Origin: a virus
Lineage: Duplodnaviria; Heunggongvirae; Uroviricota; Caudoviricetes
Direction: 5' to 3' (one strand)
DNA length: 39,067 bases
IMG/VR virus record: IMGVR_UViG_2703718794_000007
Shown here: piece by piece, positions 997 to 31,030 of the stretch
Position numbering within the stretch: the stretch's first letter is position 1
Layout: each line of letters opens with the position of its first letter
Program-made: the position numbers and the translations under genes
The notes under the pieces: generated by a model
Seen by the model: only the letters and a program-made list of their open reading frames with translations
What the model was told of the DNA's origin: nothing
Database searches by the model: none

Positions 997-1192
997 TACG
1001 TATCCTTATACCTGAAATCTTCGCAAGTATGCCTGGCCGCGAGATTATGGCACACTTGTCCGGTTAACTCTCGTCTCATACAGGTAACACAAACGTGAAA
1101 ATCCTTGTTGATGAAAAAAATGATGATTTAATTTATTGATATAAAAGGATTTATATCAGCACGTGTCCACGTAGTGACCACATTTTCGAGTT

Positions 1193-1236
1193 ACAGATAA
1201 CACAAAGCCCGTTTTCACGGGCTTTGTGTTATCTGT
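1193..1236. repeat. Perfect 19-bp inverted repeat (arms 1193-1211 and 1218-1236, 6-nt loop); strong stem-loop, not a canonical intrinsic terminator
   Basis: ACAGATAACACAAAGCCCG / CGGGCTTTGTGTTATCTGT are exact reverse complements; no flanking T-run on either strand. Confidence 0.5.
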
Positions 1237-1263
1237 GATTGTGGCTAAGCCACATGATTTATG

Positions 1264-2157
1264 CTATTTCCAGTTACAAGCAGCTTGAAGTGGTTTTAGC
1301 GCGTTTGACAGGCCGTTTAAATTGAAAGTTGCACTTACAGGGCTCTCATTATAAGGAGTTATTTTTGTATACATTTTGTTTGAGTTGGCTAGTTTTCGGA
1401 TGAAATCAATGTCATTACCTTTATAAAAAACAGCCTTTGTATCTGTAGATACTAGCCAGTTTCGCTCAACTGCTTTCTGTTTATCAAGACGATAAAGCAT
1501 GCTGGTTTGTTCAAGGCCTAAATATACATCCCAACTAAGAAATACTTCGGTTTTCTTTTCTCGGCAAGCTATAAACAGAGTAGGAGTAACCGCTTCTCCA
1601 AATGGAGTTCTGATATAATCATCACTTTCTAACGATAAAATTACATTTTTCGAATCATCAATTGGCGATGTAGTAATGGATGTGTGCCATTTTCCTACAT
1701 CTGTGGCTTTCTCTAATTTTGATTCAGCTTGAACAGCTTTATCCTGTGGGAATAGTTTATCGTAGCAGTTTAGTCTGGCTTCTTTATCATTTTCTGCTCG
1801 GCATTTAGATATCTCAGAAAGATTTGGTTGCTGAGCCTCTGTTGTTACTGGCTTTTCCGTTTTAGATTTTGAGTTTACAGATGGAGTAAATGTTGGAGAA
1901 AAAAAACGATCATAACAAGATAAACGTCTGTCATCATCTTTCTCATCAGGGCATTGATCTCTGCTTTCGAATTTTTCAGCAACTTTCGTTCGAGTCGGTT
2001 GTATTGACTTATCGTAACAAGAAAGTCTGTCTTTATTATTTTCTATTGCTCGGCACTGGAGTACTGCATTGAAGTTATTATGTTCAGTTGCTGCGTGAAC
2101 AGGCAGTACACTAATTGATATAAATGATGCACCTATAGAAAAAATTATATTTTTCAT
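1264..2157 (-). CDS. Secreted hypothetical protein with three tandem Cys-pair repeats
   Basis: 297-aa ORF; N-terminal signal-peptide-like segment; motif C-x9-RL-(S/N)-CYD-(K/R) recurs three times about 40 aa apart; AT-rich. Confidence 0.6.
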   Translation of the reverse strand: MKNIIFSIGASFISISVLPVHAATEHNNFNAVLQCRAIENNKDRLSCYDKSIQPTRTKVAEKFESRDQCPDEKDDDRRLSCYDRFFSPTFTPSVNSKSKTEKPVTTEAQQPNLSEISKCRAENDKEARLNCYDKLFPQDKAVQAESKLEKATDVGKWHTSITTSPIDDSKNVILSLESDDYIRTPFGEAVTPTLFIACREKKTEVFLSWDVYLGLEQTSMLYRLDKQKAVERNWLVSTDTKAVFYKGNDIDFIRKLANSNKMYTKITPYNESPVSATFNLNGLSNALKPLQAACNWK

Positions 2158-2161
2158 TTTG

Positions 2162-2494
2162 TTATCCTTTTGGTTTAGTAAGAAACACTAAAATTCCGAT
2201 AATGATATCGCCAATAACCCATAAACTTCCAATGGTAATTAAACCTAAGCCTGTACCAATAACTGCACCGGCTTTTTCGGCATCGGATGTAGCATTATTT
2301 ATTATTTCACTAGTGCCTCCCAGTCCAACTAAAAGCGTATAGATCATAAAAATATTAAATAATATAAAAATCCACTTAATGAGCTTTCCAAAAAATGAAC
2401 GCTTAAGTTTTTTTATTTGTTTACCGCAAGCAGGGCAATACAATGCTGAATCGCTCACCTCTTTCTGGCATTCAGGACATTTGATTAATGCCAT
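2162..2494 (-). CDS. Zinc-ribbon membrane protein
   Basis: 110-aa ORF; N-terminal CPEC...CPAC zinc ribbon followed by two hydrophobic helices; 4 bp upstream of the Cys-repeat gene, likely one operon. Confidence 0.55.
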   Translation of the reverse strand: MALIKCPECQKEVSDSALYCPACGKQIKKLKRSFFGKLIKWIFILFNIFMIYTLLVGLGGTSEIINNATSDAEKAGAVIGTGLGLITIGSLWVIGDIIIGILVFLTKPKG

Positions 2495-2724
2495 GTAATC
2501 CGCCTCCTTTGGATCAATACGAGTTGATATTTGTTACAAAACATTTTGATTTTATCAGATTTTTTTTTATTGATAAGTGTCAATTGATTAGCTGGTATAG
2601 AGTGAGACATAAAGAAGGTCAGATCTGTATCAGTAGTGATGCAAAAATCCCACAGTTTCATGGAATTTTTGCATTTAGAGCCGTGAGATAGGGTGCCTTA
2701 TCGACCTTACCCTGGCAACCGATT

Positions 2725-2746
2725 GACGGGGGATTACTCCCCCGTC
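2725..2746 (-). other. GC-rich stem-loop at the 3' end of the hok-like transcript
   Basis: GACGGGGGA-TTAC-TCCCCCGTC, 9-bp stem, just downstream of the hok-like stop on the minus strand. Confidence 0.4.
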
Positions 2747-2755
2747 GCGGTTTCC

Positions 2756-3538: not shown

Positions 3539-4561
3539 ATGGGAAGAGATATAACGCTGTACCCTAAAAAAGCAACTAGAAACGAACTTAAAAATTACCT
3601 TGAAAATTTAGGTTTTAAAAGGTGTAAACATTTGTGGGAATGGCCCCAAGGAACGTTGAATTACTCTTGGTTTGATGATACGGACTTCAAATCTACAGAT
3701 GGAGTTTCGGCTGATATATATCCTGTTTCAAATGACGAACTACACATATCTGGTAATAAATGGGCATTGCATGTGCGTAATTTATATAGCGCTAGTTGGC
3801 ATGATGTAAAAATGCTTAATGATGTTCTAAAAGGCGCACGGAGTCTTTTTGGTGGAACACTTATAGGTGATTATGGGAAAAATAGGTACGCTCCTCTATG
3901 GAAGGATTCTAGTAGTCCGATCAGTCGTGGCATTTCTTCAATATTTAATCATGTCCATCATGAGATTTCCGCTGTTAAACATGCCTTACCTGAACCTTCT
4001 ATTAAATTAAACCTACCGGAAGATGGCGGCTTATTCGAATACTTTGATTACATGCAATGTATGGATCCCAGTAGAGTTATATATAATGGATTAGTACCTT
4101 TTGCGGTTGCTATGTTTGAATATTTTTTCTCTAGAGCTTTTCAAATACTTATAAAGTACGATCCTTTCGCAATAGCAAAAAGAACATCGTATAAGCAAAA
4201 AGTTGATTTTGATATTCTGCTTGAGATAGAGAAAGGAAATATTTCAATAGAAAGTGTTATTGCAAGAAATTACACTTTTCAAAACTTAACCCACCTAAAC
4301 AAAGCATATAAAGAGTGGCTGGATATAGATGTGAGAGCGATTCTTTATAAGAAAAAAAGAATTGGAAAATCAGTTGATTTTCTTGAGAATCGAATTTCTG
4401 AAATCATACAATATAGACATGGGATAGTTCATCACTTTGAGTTGGATAGGACCTTAAATCGGGATGGATATATTCATATATTAGATGCGATAGAAAAAAG
4501 CATAATTGAATTTATCCATTACATAGAAGGCAAATACAAATTTAAATTAAATGCGTATTAA
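3539..4561 (+). CDS. Hypothetical cargo protein; possible C-terminal HEPN-like Rx4H motif
   Basis: 340-aa ORF, AT-rich, opposite strand to the flanking ogr and D; C-terminal YRHGIVHH; no family recognised. Confidence 0.65.
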   Translation: MGRDITLYPKKATRNELKNYLENLGFKRCKHLWEWPQGTLNYSWFDDTDFKSTDGVSADIYPVSNDELHISGNKWALHVRNLYSASWHDVKMLNDVLKGARSLFGGTLIGDYGKNRYAPLWKDSSSPISRGISSIFNHVHHEISAVKHALPEPSIKLNLPEDGGLFEYFDYMQCMDPSRVIYNGLVPFAVAMFEYFFSRAFQILIKYDPFAIAKRTSYKQKVDFDILLEIEKGNISIESVIARNYTFQNLTHLNKAYKEWLDIDVRAILYKKKRIGKSVDFLENRISEIIQYRHGIVHHFELDRTLNRDGYIHILDAIEKSIIEFIHYIEGKYKFKLNAY

Positions 4562-11686: not shown

Positions 11687-12249
11687 ATGCTAAATAATAG
11701 AGATATGAATATTAATGAACTTAAAGATTGTATTCACTATGAAGTAATCGGTAGCGAGCGTCCTTTCTCTTGGCGAAAGGCAATTGTTCGCGCAATAAAA
11801 CATAGAAGGGTTCGTTATTTATTTTGGTGGCGCATAGCCAAATACTTTTTGATAAAGGCGGATACTGTCGGAAGATTGCGGGGAAAATAGAACGTTTCAT
11901 TCTTGATAAATATAATGTAACAGTCCCTTTAACTGTAAATATAGGGAAAGGCTTTGATATTTCTTATCTCAACAGTGTTGTTATCGGTCACAAAGTAACA
12001 ATCGGTGAAAATTGTTCAATAAAACCAGGGGTAACTATTGGGCTACGTGGTGATTTTAATGATATGGATATTGTTATAGGACATAATGTGACCATTGGTT
12101 GTAATGCCACCATTCTTGGTGGCAAAGTGCGTATAGGAAATAATGTCACAATAGGTGCTCATGCATTGGTATTGCATGATATTCCTGATGATTCAACATT
12201 CATCACTAAATTTCAGTCTGAAGTTATCTGCTCGTCCTCCCGTACATAA
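11687..12249 (+). pseudogene. Hexapeptide-repeat (WcaB/CysE-like) sugar O-acetyltransferase split by a frameshift
   Basis: ORF 11687-11890 carries the N-terminal YLFWWRIAKYF-type segment and ORF 11824-12249 the hexapeptide VIG/TIG repeats in another frame; AT-rich. Confidence 0.6.
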
Positions 12250-27919: not shown

Positions 27920-28438
27920 TCATTCGAAACTGGCAAGAATCTGTTCTCGAACAGAAGATTTCATCGTTAACCCACGATCTAGGAAAAATTGGAAATGCAT
28001 TAAGGCTTGTTGTTTGTGGATAAGTCTCCTGTGCACAGCCTCTTGAAGTAGCCCTCCGTGGCGGGCGGCTTTTACACCGCGTTCCGCACACGTTTTATAA
28101 ACCGCATTATCCGCCGAAAGACATGTTGCATCATGTATTCTCGCGTTAACAACGCAGCTTATGTCCGCATACTTCAATGCTCTCCTGCGATTTTTTATCT
28201 CAGCCATTTCAATAAAATGTTCAGGTTCGTAATCATTGGTGAAATTGTATGGAAGTTGCAGGCGTGTAAGCTGTTCCTGAACATCAAGATTGTATTTAGC
28301 TTTTAGTTCCTCGCAGACATAGGGGTCAATCCACACACCACCCGGGTAAATTTGCCAGATAAGATCTAAGCATTTACCTTCGTAAAAATCAGACAGTACA
28401 TTCGTATCGATAACACATCTGGGGCATTCAAACGGCAT
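27920..28438 (-). CDS. PIN-domain protein (putative toxin/nuclease)
   Basis: ORF 27920-28471; from MPFECPRCVIDTNVLSD it shows the PIN-type N-terminal Asp motif and a later HDAT acidic motif; start overlaps the upstream gene. Confidence 0.7.
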   Translation of the reverse strand: MPFECPRCVIDTNVLSDFYEGKCLDLIWQIYPGGVWIDPYVCEELKAKYNLDVQEQLTRLQLPYNFTNDYEPEHFIEMAEIKNRRRALKYADISCVVNARIHDATCLSADNAVYKTCAERGVKAARHGGLLQEAVHRRLIHKQQALMHFQFFLDRGLTMKSSVREQILASFE

Positions 28439-29573
28439 CCTCTCCGGCCTCCTGTTCGTCGTACCATTCATCCAGAAGATTGCTGAGAGCTTTTCTGTCT
28501 AATTCTAAAAGTTCAGATATGAAGGTTTCCGACGCGGAACCGGCTTCCCATGCTTTACGCGATAAGACGGTTAGGCGGCCTTTATAATTTAGTGCTTCCC
28601 TAATGGGATTTGGCTCGTGTCTCTTCCAACCTTTACGATTGGCGGTTGCCCATAGGTATCTAGTGTTTTGTTGATTAATTAAATTACATTTACTAAGACG
28701 ATCGATGATGCAAGTGGCTGATACTCTGAAAATGCTTTTTAGTCTAAGGACGGTTTCCTCATACGCCCATCCACCACCTTGCATGACGAATTGTTTTCGC
28801 AATGCGCTTTCTGGTACCAAAAAACAAGCAGCAAAGTGATTAGCAACTTTTTCTTCCGGTGAAATTGCTTTGCCATTGGTTTTATAGCTTTTAGCAGGGC
28901 CATCATACTCATCACGGTGGAAGATAAGATGAGCATATTCATGGCAAATACTGAAGATTTGACGTTCTATTGAAATGCTATCGTGAACATTTACATAAAT
29001 CGCGGTACCGTATTTGTTCGAAAACGCAGAAAATCCGAATACCATCCCTTTATCAGTTTCTTCGCGATTGAACGGGATTACTCGAATATCCGATGCTTCC
29101 AAAATGGCTACAATGTCACCAACGCAAGTAGCGTTTCCTATACCGAGACGGAAACGTTCTTCCATAGCCTTATCTTCGACTCTTCGCAAATCTTCTGCTT
29201 TGGCGGTAAAAATAGGCATTGAGTTAGGAAGATCTTCTGGCAAATTAGCATCTGCAGCTTCCTCAATTGCATTGATATTTTTTAACTTTTCAATCAACTC
29301 ATTGCGAAGTTTGGCATCCAACAAATCCGGACTATCTGCTCGCATTGCAAAACGAAACTCGCCATCATCTTGCTCATAAAAATACCCGATAGGCTTATCG
29401 AAAATCTTGCAGAGCATGATGAGTTGGGTAACGCTTGGGACGCCTAGCGCCTGCTCAAACTTACTGTAGGTTTGACGAACAACACCGATCGCATCTGCGA
29501 CGGCGCTTGCACTCATTCCTGCGTCGTTTCTGGCCTGAACCAAGCGTTCTGCTATACGCTGTTGAATGTTCAT
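28428..29573 (-). CDS. XRE-family HTH fused to an ImmA/IrrE (COG2856) zinc metallopeptidase
   Basis: 381 aa; N-terminal helix-turn-helix (MSASAVADAIGVVRQTYSKFE) and HEYAH zinc-binding motif mid-protein. Confidence 0.75.
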   Translation of the reverse strand: MNIQQRIAERLVQARNDAGMSASAVADAIGVVRQTYSKFEQALGVPSVTQLIMLCKIFDKPIGYFYEQDDGEFRFAMRADSPDLLDAKLRNELIEKLKNINAIEEAADANLPEDLPNSMPIFTAKAEDLRRVEDKAMEERFRLGIGNATCVGDIVAILEASDIRVIPFNREETDKGMVFGFSAFSNKYGTAIYVNVHDSISIERQIFSICHEYAHLIFHRDEYDGPAKSYKTNGKAISPEEKVANHFAACFLVPESALRKQFVMQGGGWAYEETVLRLKSIFRVSATCIIDRLSKCNLINQQNTRYLWATANRKGWKRHEPNPIREALNYKGRLTVLSRKAWEAGSASETFISELLELDRKALSNLLDEWYDEQEAGEDAV

Positions 29574-29754: not shown

Positions 29755-30066
29755 TTACTCAGGAAATAGCGCCCGGATATTTCCGGCCATCTGACTGGTT
29801 ATCTGTGCGGTTGATACTGGCTGTGATGCGGGGCGTTCTGTCCTAGTTTGTGTCACTGATAACGCTTCATCATCAGCCCATGCAGCCAGTCGGTAAGCCT
29901 CTGCCGGATTCATTTTCAGAAGTGCCAGCCCGGCCAGAAAAGCCACACGTTGGCCGCTTTTGCGGGCTTCTGGTGTAAGGCTGTCCAGCCAGGCGCATGC
30001 TTCGCCTTCGTTCTTTACGGCGGCGGGCTTCAGATAGAAACTTATTCGTCTGGTTGGTGTCGTCAT
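29755..30066 (-). CDS. parR: ParR-like partition adaptor
   Basis: ORF 29755-30201; from MTTPTRRISFYLKP the sequence matches my recollection of R1 ParR (LDS..ER...AFLAGLAL, C-terminal LFPE); directly after parM. Confidence 0.7.
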   Translation of the reverse strand: MTTPTRRISFYLKPAAVKNEGEACAWLDSLTPEARKSGQRVAFLAGLALLKMNPAEAYRLAAWADDEALSVTQTRTERPASQPVSTAQITSQMAGNIRALFPE

Positions 30067-30070
30067 TGGT

Positions 30071-31030
30071 TTACTCCTTGTCCATTGCGTACAGCCCATT
30101 AACCAGAGCAAACTGTGGCACCCCGTCCGCGATGAAAGTCGCATTAACTCCGCAGGCTTCGCGGATAGCGGGTGCCACAATCTCCGCCCCGCCACCGACA
30201 ACCATCACCCGCCCGTAACCCGAAAAACCCGCCAGCGCGCGGATCACGCGTTGTTTCAGTGTTTCTTCCTTTTCACGAATAACCGCCATCAGGCTGGCGT
30301 AATGCGCGTCATTGTGGATGTGCTGGCGCAGCCAGGCTTCATCATGGCGATGTTCGATAATGGTATTGGCGATGTGGTGACTGGTACGCATACCGTTAGT
30401 GGCCATCACCGACAGTACGGCATCGGCCATCAGGGAAACGCCTACGTGTGGATCGCAAAACACCTGGCTGATACCTGCCAGTTGTCCCTGAACCTTTGCC
30501 ACATCCAGCGTGGTTCCGCCCAAATCCACAATCAGCAGGGATTCAAACGGACTCATGTCAGCCAGTGCTTTAAAACCAGCCGGAATGGATTCAGGCATAA
30601 CCCGTACGTTACGGATAGTGAATGCTTGTCCGTTCTGGTAGGCCACCGGGCGCATGACGTTTGCTTTTTTGCGGTTGATGTTGGCCATGTCCGGCTGTGC
30701 GTTTGTGTCGAAATATTCGCTCAGTGGCAGGGTGACAACCACATCCACCTCCTGTGGTGTGATGCCTGATTTGACCAGCGCGTGATGAATGGCAATGACA
30801 TTCACATCGCTGTACTGGTATTGCGTGTCGGTCGTCTGGACAAAGCGATCGCTGACCGGATCAAAACCATAGCGCACGCCATCAAGCATGTAGTTCGCGG
30901 GCTGCGTGCCACCGAACGGCGCAGACCATTCCGACTTGAAGCTGTTCGGGCTGATGGCGTTGCGGCGTTCGCCGTTCTCAGTCCATGCCAGCTTGATGTT
31001 GGTGGAGCCGTCATCGATACAAATTTTCAT
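30071..31030 (-). CDS. parM: ParM/StbA-like actin-fold segregation ATPase
   Basis: 319 aa; MKICIDDGSTNIKLAW, VMPESIPAG, LIVDLGGTTLD and VVGGGAEI match ParM motifs. Confidence 0.8.
   Translation of the reverse strand: MKICIDDGSTNIKLAWTENGERRNAISPNSFKSEWSAPFGGTQPANYMLDGVRYGFDPVSDRFVQTTDTQYQYSDVNVIAIHHALVKSGITPQEVDVVVTLPLSEYFDTNAQPDMANINRKKANVMRPVAYQNGQAFTIRNVRVMPESIPAGFKALADMSPFESLLIVDLGGTTLDVAKVQGQLAGISQVFCDPHVGVSLMADAVLSVMATNGMRTSHHIANTIIEHRHDEAWLRQHIHNDAHYASLMAVIREKEETLKQRVIRALAGFSGYGRVMVVGGGAEIVAPAIREACGVNATFIADGVPQFALVNGLYAMDKE

Follow-up and report, generated by a model that had tools for sequence, protein, structure and literature searches.

Proteins that resemble the products of the locus analysed here have been described in anti-phage defence and in type VI secretion (T6SS). 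SDIC4, a system of the Serratia defence islands which is widespread in Klebsiella, Salmonella, Citrobacter, Enterobacter and E. coli, comprises a small partner gene and SDIC4B, a protein with a VasI-like fold. SDIC4B gives 10-200-fold protection against phages, and it is protective on its own (bioRxiv 10.1101/2024.01.28.577318). The second counterpart is TagO/VasI of T6SS. TagO is itself listed among the proteins of unknown role (PMC13584744), so that no mechanism can be read from the name. For phage phiSM, ORF1 has been listed as 'T6SS VasI family protein, virulence' (PMC6456863), and the cassette is already annotated and mentioned in the literature. Papers on P2 prophage tools (Phollow), on TagO of EHEC and avian STEC and on VasI of Vibrio fluvialis were also considered, but they deal with a genuine T6SS gene or other loci and not with the prophage cassette. 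The window, by which the whole stretch of analysed DNA is meant (39,067 nt of a virus, record IMGVR_UViG_2703718794_000007), contains two genes that are best explained as a moron cassette encoding a putative lysogen-expressed envelope module directed against incoming phages and other injection machines. This explanation, taken as a whole, is tentative, and its chances are put at somewhat below even.

In K-12, pdxB directly adjoins flk. The K-12 match of the window stops at base 1117, i.e. 23 nt into pdxB, so that the native GTG start and seven codons are kept before phage sequence follows and the frame ends with a stop after 14 codons. The sequence GTGAAAATCCTTGTTGATGAAAA occurs only once in the window, at 1095-1117. 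In strain OkiPb01716, a second copy of the att core AAAATCCTTGTTGATGAAAA is found past the integrase, at attL, where the remaining pdxB follows with a new 5' end that is supplied by the phage. Homology to the attP of phage Chuche begins at 1098 and stops at 1190 (95.7% identity), and Klebsiella phage ST16-OXA48phi5.4 matches about 1125-1184 of the attP arm. Since the att core lies within the first codons of pdxB, the two genes are located inside the prophage, between hok/ogr and attR. They are part of the ogr/attR end of a P2-like (Xuanwuvirus/P88-type) prophage that is inserted in the first pdxB codons, and the orphaned host pdxB promoter now faces into the prophage end. The gene content of the window is flk plus prophage genes only; other defence-type cargo of the same prophage are an RmrA-like and a PIN gene, a HEPN-like gene and hok. 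An earlier note, made from the sequence alone, had described the two genes as an islet of horizontally acquired DNA next to the prophage. Comparison of the flk neighbourhoods, with the K-12 homology ending inside pdxB, and the att boundaries, which enclose the genes, contradict this position. The horizontal origin was borne out, and the genes are phage-borne and accessory. With a presence in 240 of 5426 complete E. coli genomes, the locus is not a conserved core locus of known function. The features of the region are listed in Table 1.

Table 1. Coordinates of features at the right-hand end of the prophage (positions refer to the window; a full point marks features without strand)
Feature	Position	Strand	Basis or remark
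pdxB 5' remnant, truncated, host-derived	1095..1139	+	K-12 pdxB-flk comparison
attR core AAAATCCTTGTTGATGAAAA, 20 bp	1098..1117	.	Right-hand boundary of P2-like prophage
Phage attP arm	1118..1190	.	Common to related phages without the cassette
Variable cargo slot, whole moron cassette (terminator, two genes, promoter region)	1191..2682	-	Flanks shared with Chuche
Perfect palindrome, 20-nt arms, 4-nt loop	1193..1236	.	Likely bidirectional intrinsic terminator
VasI/TagO-family secreted (periplasmic) protein gene, 297 aa	1264..2157	-	Pfam VasI, AF2 model
Zinc-ribbon inner-membrane protein gene, 110 aa	2162..2494	-	Pfam Zn_Ribbon_1, hydropathy, AF2
Shine-Dalgarno sequence GGAGG	2503..2507	-	8 nt upstream of zinc-ribbon gene ATG; direct sequence reading
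Promoter-like site TTATCA-16-TAAAAT, upstream TG	2549..2576	-	Consensus match and conservation only
GC-rich hairpin, 3' of hok	2724..2747	-	Predicted insulator of cassette against upstream transcription

The slot is defined by flanks that the window and phage Chuche have in common (1098-1190 and 2683-2760). Chuche harbors a DNA methyltransferase and Com at this position instead of the cassette, P88 only an 80-aa ORF. The two co-oriented minus-strand ORFs are separated by a gap of 4 nt and possess Shine-Dalgarno sequences, in agreement with the operon proposed in the earlier note, and the much lower GC content than that of flk was likewise confirmed (36% versus 52%). The individual values are 0.362 and 0.345 for the ORFs, with a GC3 of 0.24-0.27, compared to 0.522 for flk and 0.527 for the rest of the prophage. 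AT-richness of the cassette was found in every genus examined; in the other genera, its GC content is 36-47% against a background of 51-58%. Both genes are under purifying selection, dN/dS being 0.08-0.36 for the 297-aa gene and 0.19-0.36 for the 110-aa gene. The promoter-like element TGATAAAAT and the leader CAAAATGTTTTGTAACAAAT are kept upstream of the zinc-ribbon gene in Klebsiella and Raoultella prophages, and Dickeya and Pectobacterium possess an element similar to TGATAAAAT. Equivalents of the hairpin behind hok exist in other genera, where strong predicted terminators are situated right after ogr and immediately before the promoter-like region of the cassette.

At the other end of the cassette, the palindrome begins 27 nt past the stop codon of the 297-aa gene. 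Its arms (1193-1212 and 1217-1236) comprise a GCCCG/CGGGC core which, on either strand, is preceded by an A-tract and followed by UUUGUGUU; the folding energy is -43.4 kcal/mol (z = -9.9). The earlier note had regarded a perfect 19-bp inverted repeat as the end of the islet. The repeat is indeed perfect, but the arms have 20 nt, and it is situated outside the two-gene interval and best read as the bidirectional terminator of the cassette. Hairpins at the equivalent position were detected in four other genera. An island boundary or a recombination site was rejected in favour of a terminator because the equivalent hairpins following the gene in other genera are unrelated and because the attP arm continues past the palindrome. 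By its sequence, it likely terminates transcription of the cassette and keeps transcripts of the orphaned pdxB promoter from entering it. Thus, an upstream predicted terminator, an own conserved promoter-like region and a likely palindromic terminator downstream point to a self-contained accessory cargo cassette, a classic moron. It lies inside the att boundaries, is carried by phages, deviates in its GC content and is present or absent among similar phages.

The 110-aa protein starts with a CPEC...CPAC zinc ribbon (C6, C9, C20 and C23; Pfam Zn_Ribbon_1, E 1.8e-7) and contains two hydrophobic helices, which hydropathy places at about 38-60 and 80-105 and AF2 at 34-66 and 71-105; this agrees with the zinc-ribbon membrane protein recognized before. 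According to these models, the zinc ribbon is cytoplasmic and is joined by a basic linker to two transmembrane helices, which are connected by a short loop in the periplasm. The homologues of this protein show a mean column identity of 72%. The N-terminus of the 297-aa protein is of the Sec type (hydrophobic residues 2-23, ...VHA/AT) and includes a signal peptide at 1-22. The earlier description of a secreted protein with three cysteine repeats was correct in terms of export and copy number, but not of spacing, since a regular expression with nine residues after the cysteine found nothing while C-x8-RLxCYD is present at residues 35-49, 68-82 and 119-133. These copies are disulfide-type helical hairpin motifs. 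They are followed by a predicted IalB-fold beta domain at about 150-297 (AF2 pLDDT >90 for residues 150-297), in which C198 and C294 are conserved. The structural matches point to the IalB fold, with a flagellar periplasmic ring component as second-best; a sequence search of the PDB gave chance-level matches only. The protein is not an orphan, since it is a member of Pfam VasI (PF11319; E 2.6e-25, 89.6 bits versus a cut-off of 26.5) and its RefSeq product name is TagO. Residues 118-296 cover the VasI profile completely (positions 1-184); further matched stretches come from the two additional motifs nearer the N-terminus. Among the best 150 of 6141 clusters, three such stretches were found in this cluster only. 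Some relatives carry fused peptidoglycan-binding and TonB/TolA C-terminal domains.

Both genes are present in four deposited phages, 500465-2, PhiR44_2, Citrobacter phiSM and Xuanwuvirus P884B11, and the pair is situated 3' of ogr in P2-like prophages of Escherichia, Citrobacter, Klebsiella, Raoultella, Pectobacterium, Dickeya and Salmonella. A linkage of the two genes is indicated by IMG/VR loci, 65 of 79 of which (40-100% VasI identity) have the zinc-ribbon gene immediately upstream on the same strand, by the gene order, which is kept at different chromosomal sites in Pectobacterium, Dickeya and Klebsiella/Raoultella, by another E. coli prophage, in which the neighbour is instead a protein with a zinc ribbon and two helices (TM2), and by a Zn-ribbon-TM-VasI fusion protein (P0052). 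The latter adds little because it was found in a single contig and could be the result of an in-frame deletion. Salmonella prophages harbor the VasI-like gene without any membrane partner, and a two-protein mechanism is therefore not obligatory. Furthermore, the gene has the opposite orientation in E. coli and Salmonella variants, and in unrelated temperate phages it is located directly 3' of the C or CI repressor gene, in three cases before the integrase. Some genomes keep the cassette after decay of the prophage itself. Izhakiella, which lacks a complete prophage, contains the arrangement cpxP-[Zn-VasI-TM2]-fieF, an isolated remnant of Enterobacter mori lies beside a GmrSD-type gene, and further isolated remnants were found on ETEC plasmids. 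Such remnants retain fragments of ogr, hok or the integrase or are situated where P2-like phages are known to integrate. Some ETEC lineages have a split VasI-like gene, which is thus dispensable there.

If the proposed function is correct, the operon would be transcribed from the resident prophage without requiring the late operon. Expression in the lysogen is favoured by the VasI-like gene adjoining the C/CI repressor gene in unrelated temperate phages. A counterpoint is that the pair is co-oriented with gpD-ogr in most P2-like prophages. The zinc-ribbon protein would reside in the inner membrane, the ribbon facing the cytoplasm, while the VasI-like protein would be exported by Sec, stabilised by disulfides and active in the periplasm, where it may be tethered to its membrane partner or signal via this protein. 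A role in the periplasm or envelope is suggested by the signal peptide, the conserved cysteine pairs, the predicted IalB fold, the structural match to a flagellar periplasmic ring component and the relatives with fused peptidoglycan-binding and TonB/TolA domains. By altering the envelope, the pair would stop what arrives from outside, be it a superinfecting phage (its DNA or its tail tip), a tailocin or a T6SS spike, and the lysogen would profit. The outcome would be superinfection exclusion or envelope-level defence. SDIC4B offers a precedent for such a role, and the other defence-type cargo of the prophage would fit it. In PADLOC-DB 2.0, neither protein matched a family at E <= 1, PADLOC gave no hit for the HEPN-like neighbour, and the PHROG families of both proteins are annotated as function unknown. 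It is possible, though rather doubtful, that the cassette represents a new, widespread exclusion system of P2-like prophages, in which a homologue of a T6SS accessory protein has been co-opted to act in the periplasm against contractile injection machines. If true, this would be the first functional handle on the binding target of the TagO/VasI domain.

P2 tails and T6SS are related contractile machines, and it is conceivable that the prophage TagO/VasI protein joins or modulates a T6SS of the host, thereby altering competition or virulence. Its homology to TagO is genuine. In addition to the Pfam score, it shares 26% identity with the T6SS TagO of Sakai (ECs_0222; E 5e-11, hhalign probability 97%). 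Furthermore, such a role is implied by the RefSeq product name and a 2019 C. rodentium paper, and phiSM ORF1 is listed under T6SS and virulence (PMC6456863). However, the protein does not reach the equivalog cut-off of NCBIfam TIGR03360 (75.9 versus 124.2 bits), its linked partner is a zinc-ribbon membrane protein and no Tss protein, and the name TagO brings no mechanism with it. Moreover, the window is devoid of T6SS genes, and tblastn with ClpV, TssM, TssL and TssK revealed none within 6 kb of the 20 genomic relatives tested. An accessory role in T6SS is thus considered unlikely.

Another explanation, also improbable, is a function in the lytic cycle. The pair would then be switched on together with the late genes or after them, and its target would be the envelope while phages leave or enter the cell; it might, for example, regulate lysis or prevent progeny from re-adsorbing to, or injecting into, the dying cell. 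This would fit the observation that gpD-ogr is followed at a distance of 100-120 nt by the co-oriented pair in Pectobacterium, Dickeya, Klebsiella and most IMG/VR contigs, and the report that ogr of a Salmonella P2-like prophage is expressed under all conditions (PMC7067206). On the other hand, a strong predicted terminator separates ogr (or hok) from the cassette, which has its own conserved promoter-like element. The reversed orientation of the VasI-like gene in variants from E. coli and Salmonella, its position 3' of the repressor gene in other phages, the viability of the sister phages P88 and Chuche, which do not possess the cassette, and its persistence after prophage decay also argue against a lytic function.

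By analogy with Bartonella IalB, the secreted protein might aid colonisation or invasion of an animal host. This is very unlikely, since the cassette is also frequent in the plant-associated genera Pectobacterium, Dickeya and Pantoea as well as in environmental contigs, the IalB match (PDB 3dtd, PF06776; 17% identity) scores below the Pfam cut-off (20.6 versus 22.1), and IalB itself has no defined molecular role. Finally, the view that the genes form an islet of their own, acquired horizontally, placed between flk and the prophage and bordered by the inverted repeat, is hardly credible and refuted by att-site mapping: although the GC content is below that of both neighbours and the remnants in Izhakiella, Enterobacter mori and ETEC plasmids lack a complete prophage, the att core separates the genes from flk and not from the prophage, the window contains no second att core as expected for a separate tandem element (up to three mismatches allowed), phage genomes package these genes, and the remnants still bear ogr, hok or integrase fragments or sit at P2-like integration sites.

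The data identify a TagO/VasI homologue as recurrent and selectively maintained cargo of P2-like prophages across Enterobacterales, usually accompanied by a zinc-ribbon membrane protein and located where lysogen-expressed genes sit. The T6SS name is misleading as an annotation, and a moron that bears it can inflate the numbers of T6SS or virulence genes in genome surveys. As the cassette is a compact, clonable unit of 1.5 kb, the activity of the VasI domain is directly testable against phage plating and against tailocin and T6SS killing. Should the pair act in exclusion, it would add to the rising number of defences known from prophages and, together with the SDIC4 report, would support the VasI/IalB fold as a periplasmic anti-invasion module. 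If it is inactive against phages, tailocins and T6SS, the cassette stays an ordinary moron without an assigned function.

Compared with known proteins, the 110-aa product resembles the divisome-associated inner-membrane protein DrpB (YedR) of E. coli in size, two-helix topology and a C-terminal TRP(K/R) motif, but DrpB has no zinc ribbon. Weak NCBIfam and Pfam matches to the DrpB family were obtained for this protein and several homologues (NCBIfam 22.1 versus a cut-off of 50), yet a relationship was dismissed since profile comparison did not support it (hhalign probability 16% with K-12 DrpB). IalB lacks the cysteine hairpin motif of the VasI-like protein. The latter has in common with TagO/VasI (PF11319, TIGR03360; V. 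cholerae VCA0118, Sakai ECs_0222) the signal peptide and a beta domain ending in ...PL..AC.W. However, TagO/VasI exhibits one C-x8-RLxCYD before the beta domain, whereas the prophage protein has three N-terminal motifs. Genuine TagO of E. coli (Sakai ECs_0222, T6SS-2) adjoins clpV; the prophage protein was not found beside tss genes in the window or in the 20 relatives tested and, unlike the T6SS proteins, is paired with a zinc-ribbon membrane protein. In its predicted organisation, the cassette matches the morons of P2-like phages (old, tin, Z/fun and cargo hotspots), i.e. a unit of promoter, gene(s) and terminator with deviant GC content in a fixed slot that varies between sister phages. The gene content is unrelated to old, tin and Z/fun, and the slot, reaching from ogr/hok to attP, is presumably different from the classical Z/fun and old/tin positions. 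As for SDIC4, SDIC4B is described as having no BLAST identity to VasI, and the system as occurring with BrxR in LptG-YjiA islands (bioRxiv 10.1101/2024.01.28.577318); no BrxR-like gene was seen in the window or in the contexts inspected, which were not exhaustive. Because the prophage protein is by contrast a clear Pfam VasI member, the two proteins, compared by description, may belong to different families. What both systems share, again by description, is a small upstream gene together with a protein of VasI-like fold, located outside T6SS clusters.

The integration site of the prophage falls within the first codons of pdxB. In K-12, this gene lies next to flk in divergent orientation, 98 bp apart, and the collinearity of the window with K-12 stops at base 1117, after 23 nt of pdxB coding sequence. 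The OkiPb01716 genome, 100% identical to the window across 1000-2760, contains past its integrase AAAATCCTTGTTGATGAAAA and then the remainder of pdxB. Since the K-12 match ends at 1117 and the core recurs beyond the integrase, attR (the attachment core on the flk side) could be assigned, and all of the window from 1118 onward is prophage. A search for a second copy of the core within the window found none. Two adjacent AT-rich genes next to the core, hereafter the cassette, are also present in the deposited Escherichia phages 500465-2 (99.6%) and PhiR44_2 (97%), in Citrobacter rodentium phage phiSM (96.8%) and Xuanwuvirus P884B11 (92%) and, with 67% nucleotide identity, in Klebsiella phages of the 3LV2017 type. 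The att mapping together with the presence of both genes in phage genomes demonstrates that they lie inside the prophage and not alongside it. The earlier note's reading as a separate islet next to the prophage was refuted by the att mapping and gives way to that of a terminal cargo cassette. At attL, the copy beyond the integrase (L004 4380-4720), phage DNA provides pdxB with a new TTG start and eight N-terminal residues (MSETEKGL) fused to KILVDEN..., which results in a PdxB protein of 385 instead of 378 aa; its promoter is presumably phage-derived. At attR (1095-1139), a 14-codon pdxB stub remains downstream of the native promoter.

Features of the window discussed in the text
Feature	Position	Strand	Remarks
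flk	1-996	minus	start of window
attR core	1098-1117		
Palindrome	1193-1212 / 1217-1236		perfect; 27 nt beyond the stop codon
VasI-like gene	1264-2157	minus	297 aa; ORF with Shine-Dalgarno sequence upstream
Zinc-ribbon gene	2162-2494	minus	110 aa; ORF with Shine-Dalgarno sequence upstream
Promoter-like site	2549-2576		extended -10
Inverted repeat	2639-2674		14-nt arms, 93% complementary; 8-nt spacer
Hairpin	2724-2747		3' of hok
Hok/Gef-family toxin gene	2756-2896	minus	between ogr and cassette; Pfam E 3.7e-7
AT-rich cargo gene	3539-4561	plus	340 aa; 33.6% GC; between ogr and gpD
Hexapeptide-repeat transferase ORF	11824-12249	plus	141 aa; beside tail-fibre assembly genes
HTH + M78 peptidase gene, PIN-domain gene	27920-29573	minus	overlapping pair
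parM and stbB-like genes	29755-31030	minus	StbA_N + ParM_N, E 6e-82; plasmid-stability protein

The sister phage Chuche matches the window at 1098-1190 (core and attP arm) and at 2683-2760 (end of hok) and carries a DNA methyltransferase and Com in between; the cargo of P88 at the same place is an 80-aa ORF only. Because these flanks are shared with Chuche and enclose different contents, 1191-2682 was identified as a cargo slot. In the direction of transcription, the hairpin is followed by the promoter-like site, a leader, the two genes and the palindrome. The latter folds with -43 kcal/mol (z = -9.9 against shuffles) and, with its core GCCCG/CGGGC and an A-tract and UUUGUGUU at its sides on both strands, has the predicted form of a bidirectional terminator. 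The earlier note had rightly recognized this perfect repeat, but its arms measure 20 nt, not 19, and it lies outside the coordinates given there (1264-2494). Behind ogr, prophages of Pectobacterium, Dickeya, Klebsiella and Raoultella have a predicted strong terminator, a promoter-like element (TTGtCA...TGATAAAAT) similar to that of the window, the two genes and a long hairpin whose sequence is unrelated to the palindrome; the leader recurs in Klebsiella and Raoultella. The predicted layout is that of a textbook moron, a cargo unit with its own promoter and terminator. Another inverted repeat (ATGCAAAAATCCCA / TGGAATTTTTGCAT) inside the slot, approximately 65 nt upstream of the promoter-like site, could be an operator.

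The two genes are separated by 4 nt and have GC contents of 0.362 (VasI-like) and 0.345 (zinc ribbon), with GC3 values of 0.24-0.27, compared to 0.522 for flk, as the earlier note had observed, and 0.527 for the prophage from 4682 onward. In every genus compared, the cassette is AT-rich relative to its phage (36-47% versus 51-58%). Both genes are under purifying selection (dN/dS 0.08-0.36 among E. coli variants), which is more relaxed in the repeat region of the VasI-like gene than in its C-terminal domain.

In the 110-aa protein, two hydrophobic helices come after a zinc ribbon of the form CPEC...CPAC (Pfam Zn_Ribbon_1, E 1.8e-7); the protein is strongly conserved (mean column identity 72%). 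A kinship with DrpB was considered and dismissed, as the similarity was weak and profile comparison gave no backing. The 297-aa protein starts with a Sec-type signal sequence (...VLPVHA/AT), and these features point to the inner membrane for the former and the periplasm for the latter. The earlier description as a membrane and a secreted repeat protein was essentially correct; the Cys motif does occur three times (residues 35-49, 68-82 and 119-133), but with the spacing C-x8-RL-x-CYD instead of C-x9. Two more conserved cysteines are located in the C-terminal domain. AlphaFold modelled residues 150-297 confidently (pLDDT > 90) and the Cys motifs as short helical hairpins with disordered linkers between them. 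Several lytic phages encode uncharacterised proteins of similar fold. Pfam VasI was matched across the entire profile (89.6 bits), but the protein did not reach the NCBIfam equivalog cut-off for VasI/TagO, a family of T6SS accessory proteins. When 1.84 billion representatives were searched with the profile, the family comprised 6141 clusters; among the best 150, only this one had three matched stretches. Homologues contain one, two or three motifs and are about 215, 250 and 297 aa long, respectively. The 297-aa protein shares 26% identity (E 5e-11; hhalign probability 97%) with TagO of E. coli O157 Sakai, encoded beside clpV in the T6SS cluster. It might be supposed from this homology that the cassette modulates the host T6SS; however, no tss gene was found near any relative tested, which argues for a TagO homologue without T6SS linkage and makes such a role unlikely. 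We consider a lytic-cycle role in the envelope equally improbable. An IalB-like role in host interaction seems very improbable. The PHROG families of both proteins belong to the unknown function class, and neither protein was matched by PADLOC. A periplasmic, envelope-associated role is supported by close relatives (P0166, P0191, P0220) in which the VasI-like domain is fused to PG_binding_1 and TonB/TolA C-terminal domains; these fusions connect it to peptidoglycan and trans-envelope systems.

The cassette was detected in 240 of 5426 complete E. coli genomes, in nine places on plasmids. Contexts retrieved by exact-protein look-up revealed the order gpD, ogr, zinc-ribbon gene, VasI-like gene and host DNA in Pectobacterium, Dickeya and Klebsiella/Raoultella, kept at different chromosomal sites. 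Among 79 IMG/VR loci encoding a relative, mostly at the extreme end of prophage-sized contigs (30-37 kb), the zinc-ribbon gene was directly upstream on the same strand in 65, and ogr and gpD were upstream in 66. At the tamB/ytfP site, an E. coli prophage carries a two-motif VasI-like gene in opposite orientation, adjoining a different small protein, again with a zinc ribbon and two helices (TM2 domain); Salmonella prophages have the VasI-like gene without partner. In more distant temperate phages, it comes directly behind the gene of the C or CI repressor, and in three cases the integrase is its next neighbour on the other side. In one metagenomic P2-like prophage (L022 6001-6732), the zinc ribbon (1-29) is joined to a single hydrophobic helix, a single Cys motif and the VasI domain in a 243-aa protein (P0052); this is either a genuine Rosetta-stone fusion or the product of an in-frame deletion that linked the two genes. 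In Izhakiella australiensis (L113 5561-7006), Zn-VasI-TM2 persists without phage genes between cpxP and fieF, the integration site of the Klebsiella and Pectobacterium prophages, and in Enterobacter mori (L109 5658-6885) the cassette lies without prophage beside a GmrSD-type restriction gene and integrase fragments. ETEC virulence-size plasmids such as p204446_146 (L104, 7056-9519) harbor a prophage fragment (truncated gpD, ogr, hok and both cassette genes) adjoining a group II intron; in this lineage and on an ETEC O6:H16 chromosome (L105), the VasI-like gene is split into ORFs of 282 and 567 bp. A 4.2-kb contig (L108, DEQA01000038.1) from a MAG that bears the label Planococcaceae bacterium UBA3378 has gene products with 75-100% identity to those of E. 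coli (VasI-like, hok and gpD fragment 100%, zinc ribbon 99%, ogr 75%) and is almost certainly a binning contaminant.

The prophage contains further cargo. The hok gene is conserved in P88-like prophages of E. coli and Salmonella and absent from those of Klebsiella, Dickeya and Pectobacterium. The 340-aa product gave a weak RiboL-PSP-type HEPN match (22.1 bits, cut-off 28.4) and none in PADLOC or NCBIfam; its gene is missing from PhiR44_2 and phiSM, in which gpD comes immediately after ogr. The HTH + M78 protein matches PADLOC RmrA models (E 2.8e-35), and the pair, placed in the early-region cargo slot, has the appearance of a RosmerTA-like defence or toxin-antitoxin module. The ParM/StbB-like pair sits within an integrating P2-like prophage; a partitioning protein is also included in the phiSM list of Magaziner et al. 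(PMC6456863). The transferase ORF may be a surface-polysaccharide acetyltransferase moron.

Location and boundaries of the cassette and the order of its genes and predicted signals were established, as were the linkage of its genes, family membership and fold, and its identity as the terminal moron cassette of a P2-like prophage is close to certain. As the best explanation of its function, the genes would be active in the resident prophage and both products would act jointly in the envelope, shielding the lysogen against an invader from outside, most plausibly a superinfecting phage. This reading is built on the anatomy of a moron, the position of relatives behind repressor genes, the retention after prophage decay, the accompanying defence-type cargo (RmrA-like + PIN, HEPN-like gene, hok) and the precedent of SDIC4, an anti-phage system. 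Identity and protective envelope function taken together are proposed tentatively, with confidence somewhat short of even. Owing to its conservation across P2-like phages, the cassette is a reasonable and inexpensive choice for assays of defence or exclusion.

As a moron, the cassette is an ordinary kind of object. It has been annotated before, and the literature mentions it: ORF1 of phiSM appears among the cargo genes under the name 'T6SS VasI family protein', classed as virulence-associated without test (Magaziner et al., PMC6456863). What the cassette carries is a little unusual, namely the homologue of a T6SS accessory protein, with its Cys hairpin in triplicate, paired with a conserved zinc-ribbon membrane protein. 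In a 2026 review, TagO is entered with function unknown (PMC13584744). SDIC4B of Serratia defence islands, a protein with VasI-like fold encoded with a small partner, protects 10-200-fold against phages and is not T6SS-linked (2024 preprint, bioRxiv 10.1101/2024.01.28.577318). Judged by its description, SDIC4 resembles the cassette in its VasI-like fold, its small partner and the lack of a T6SS link.
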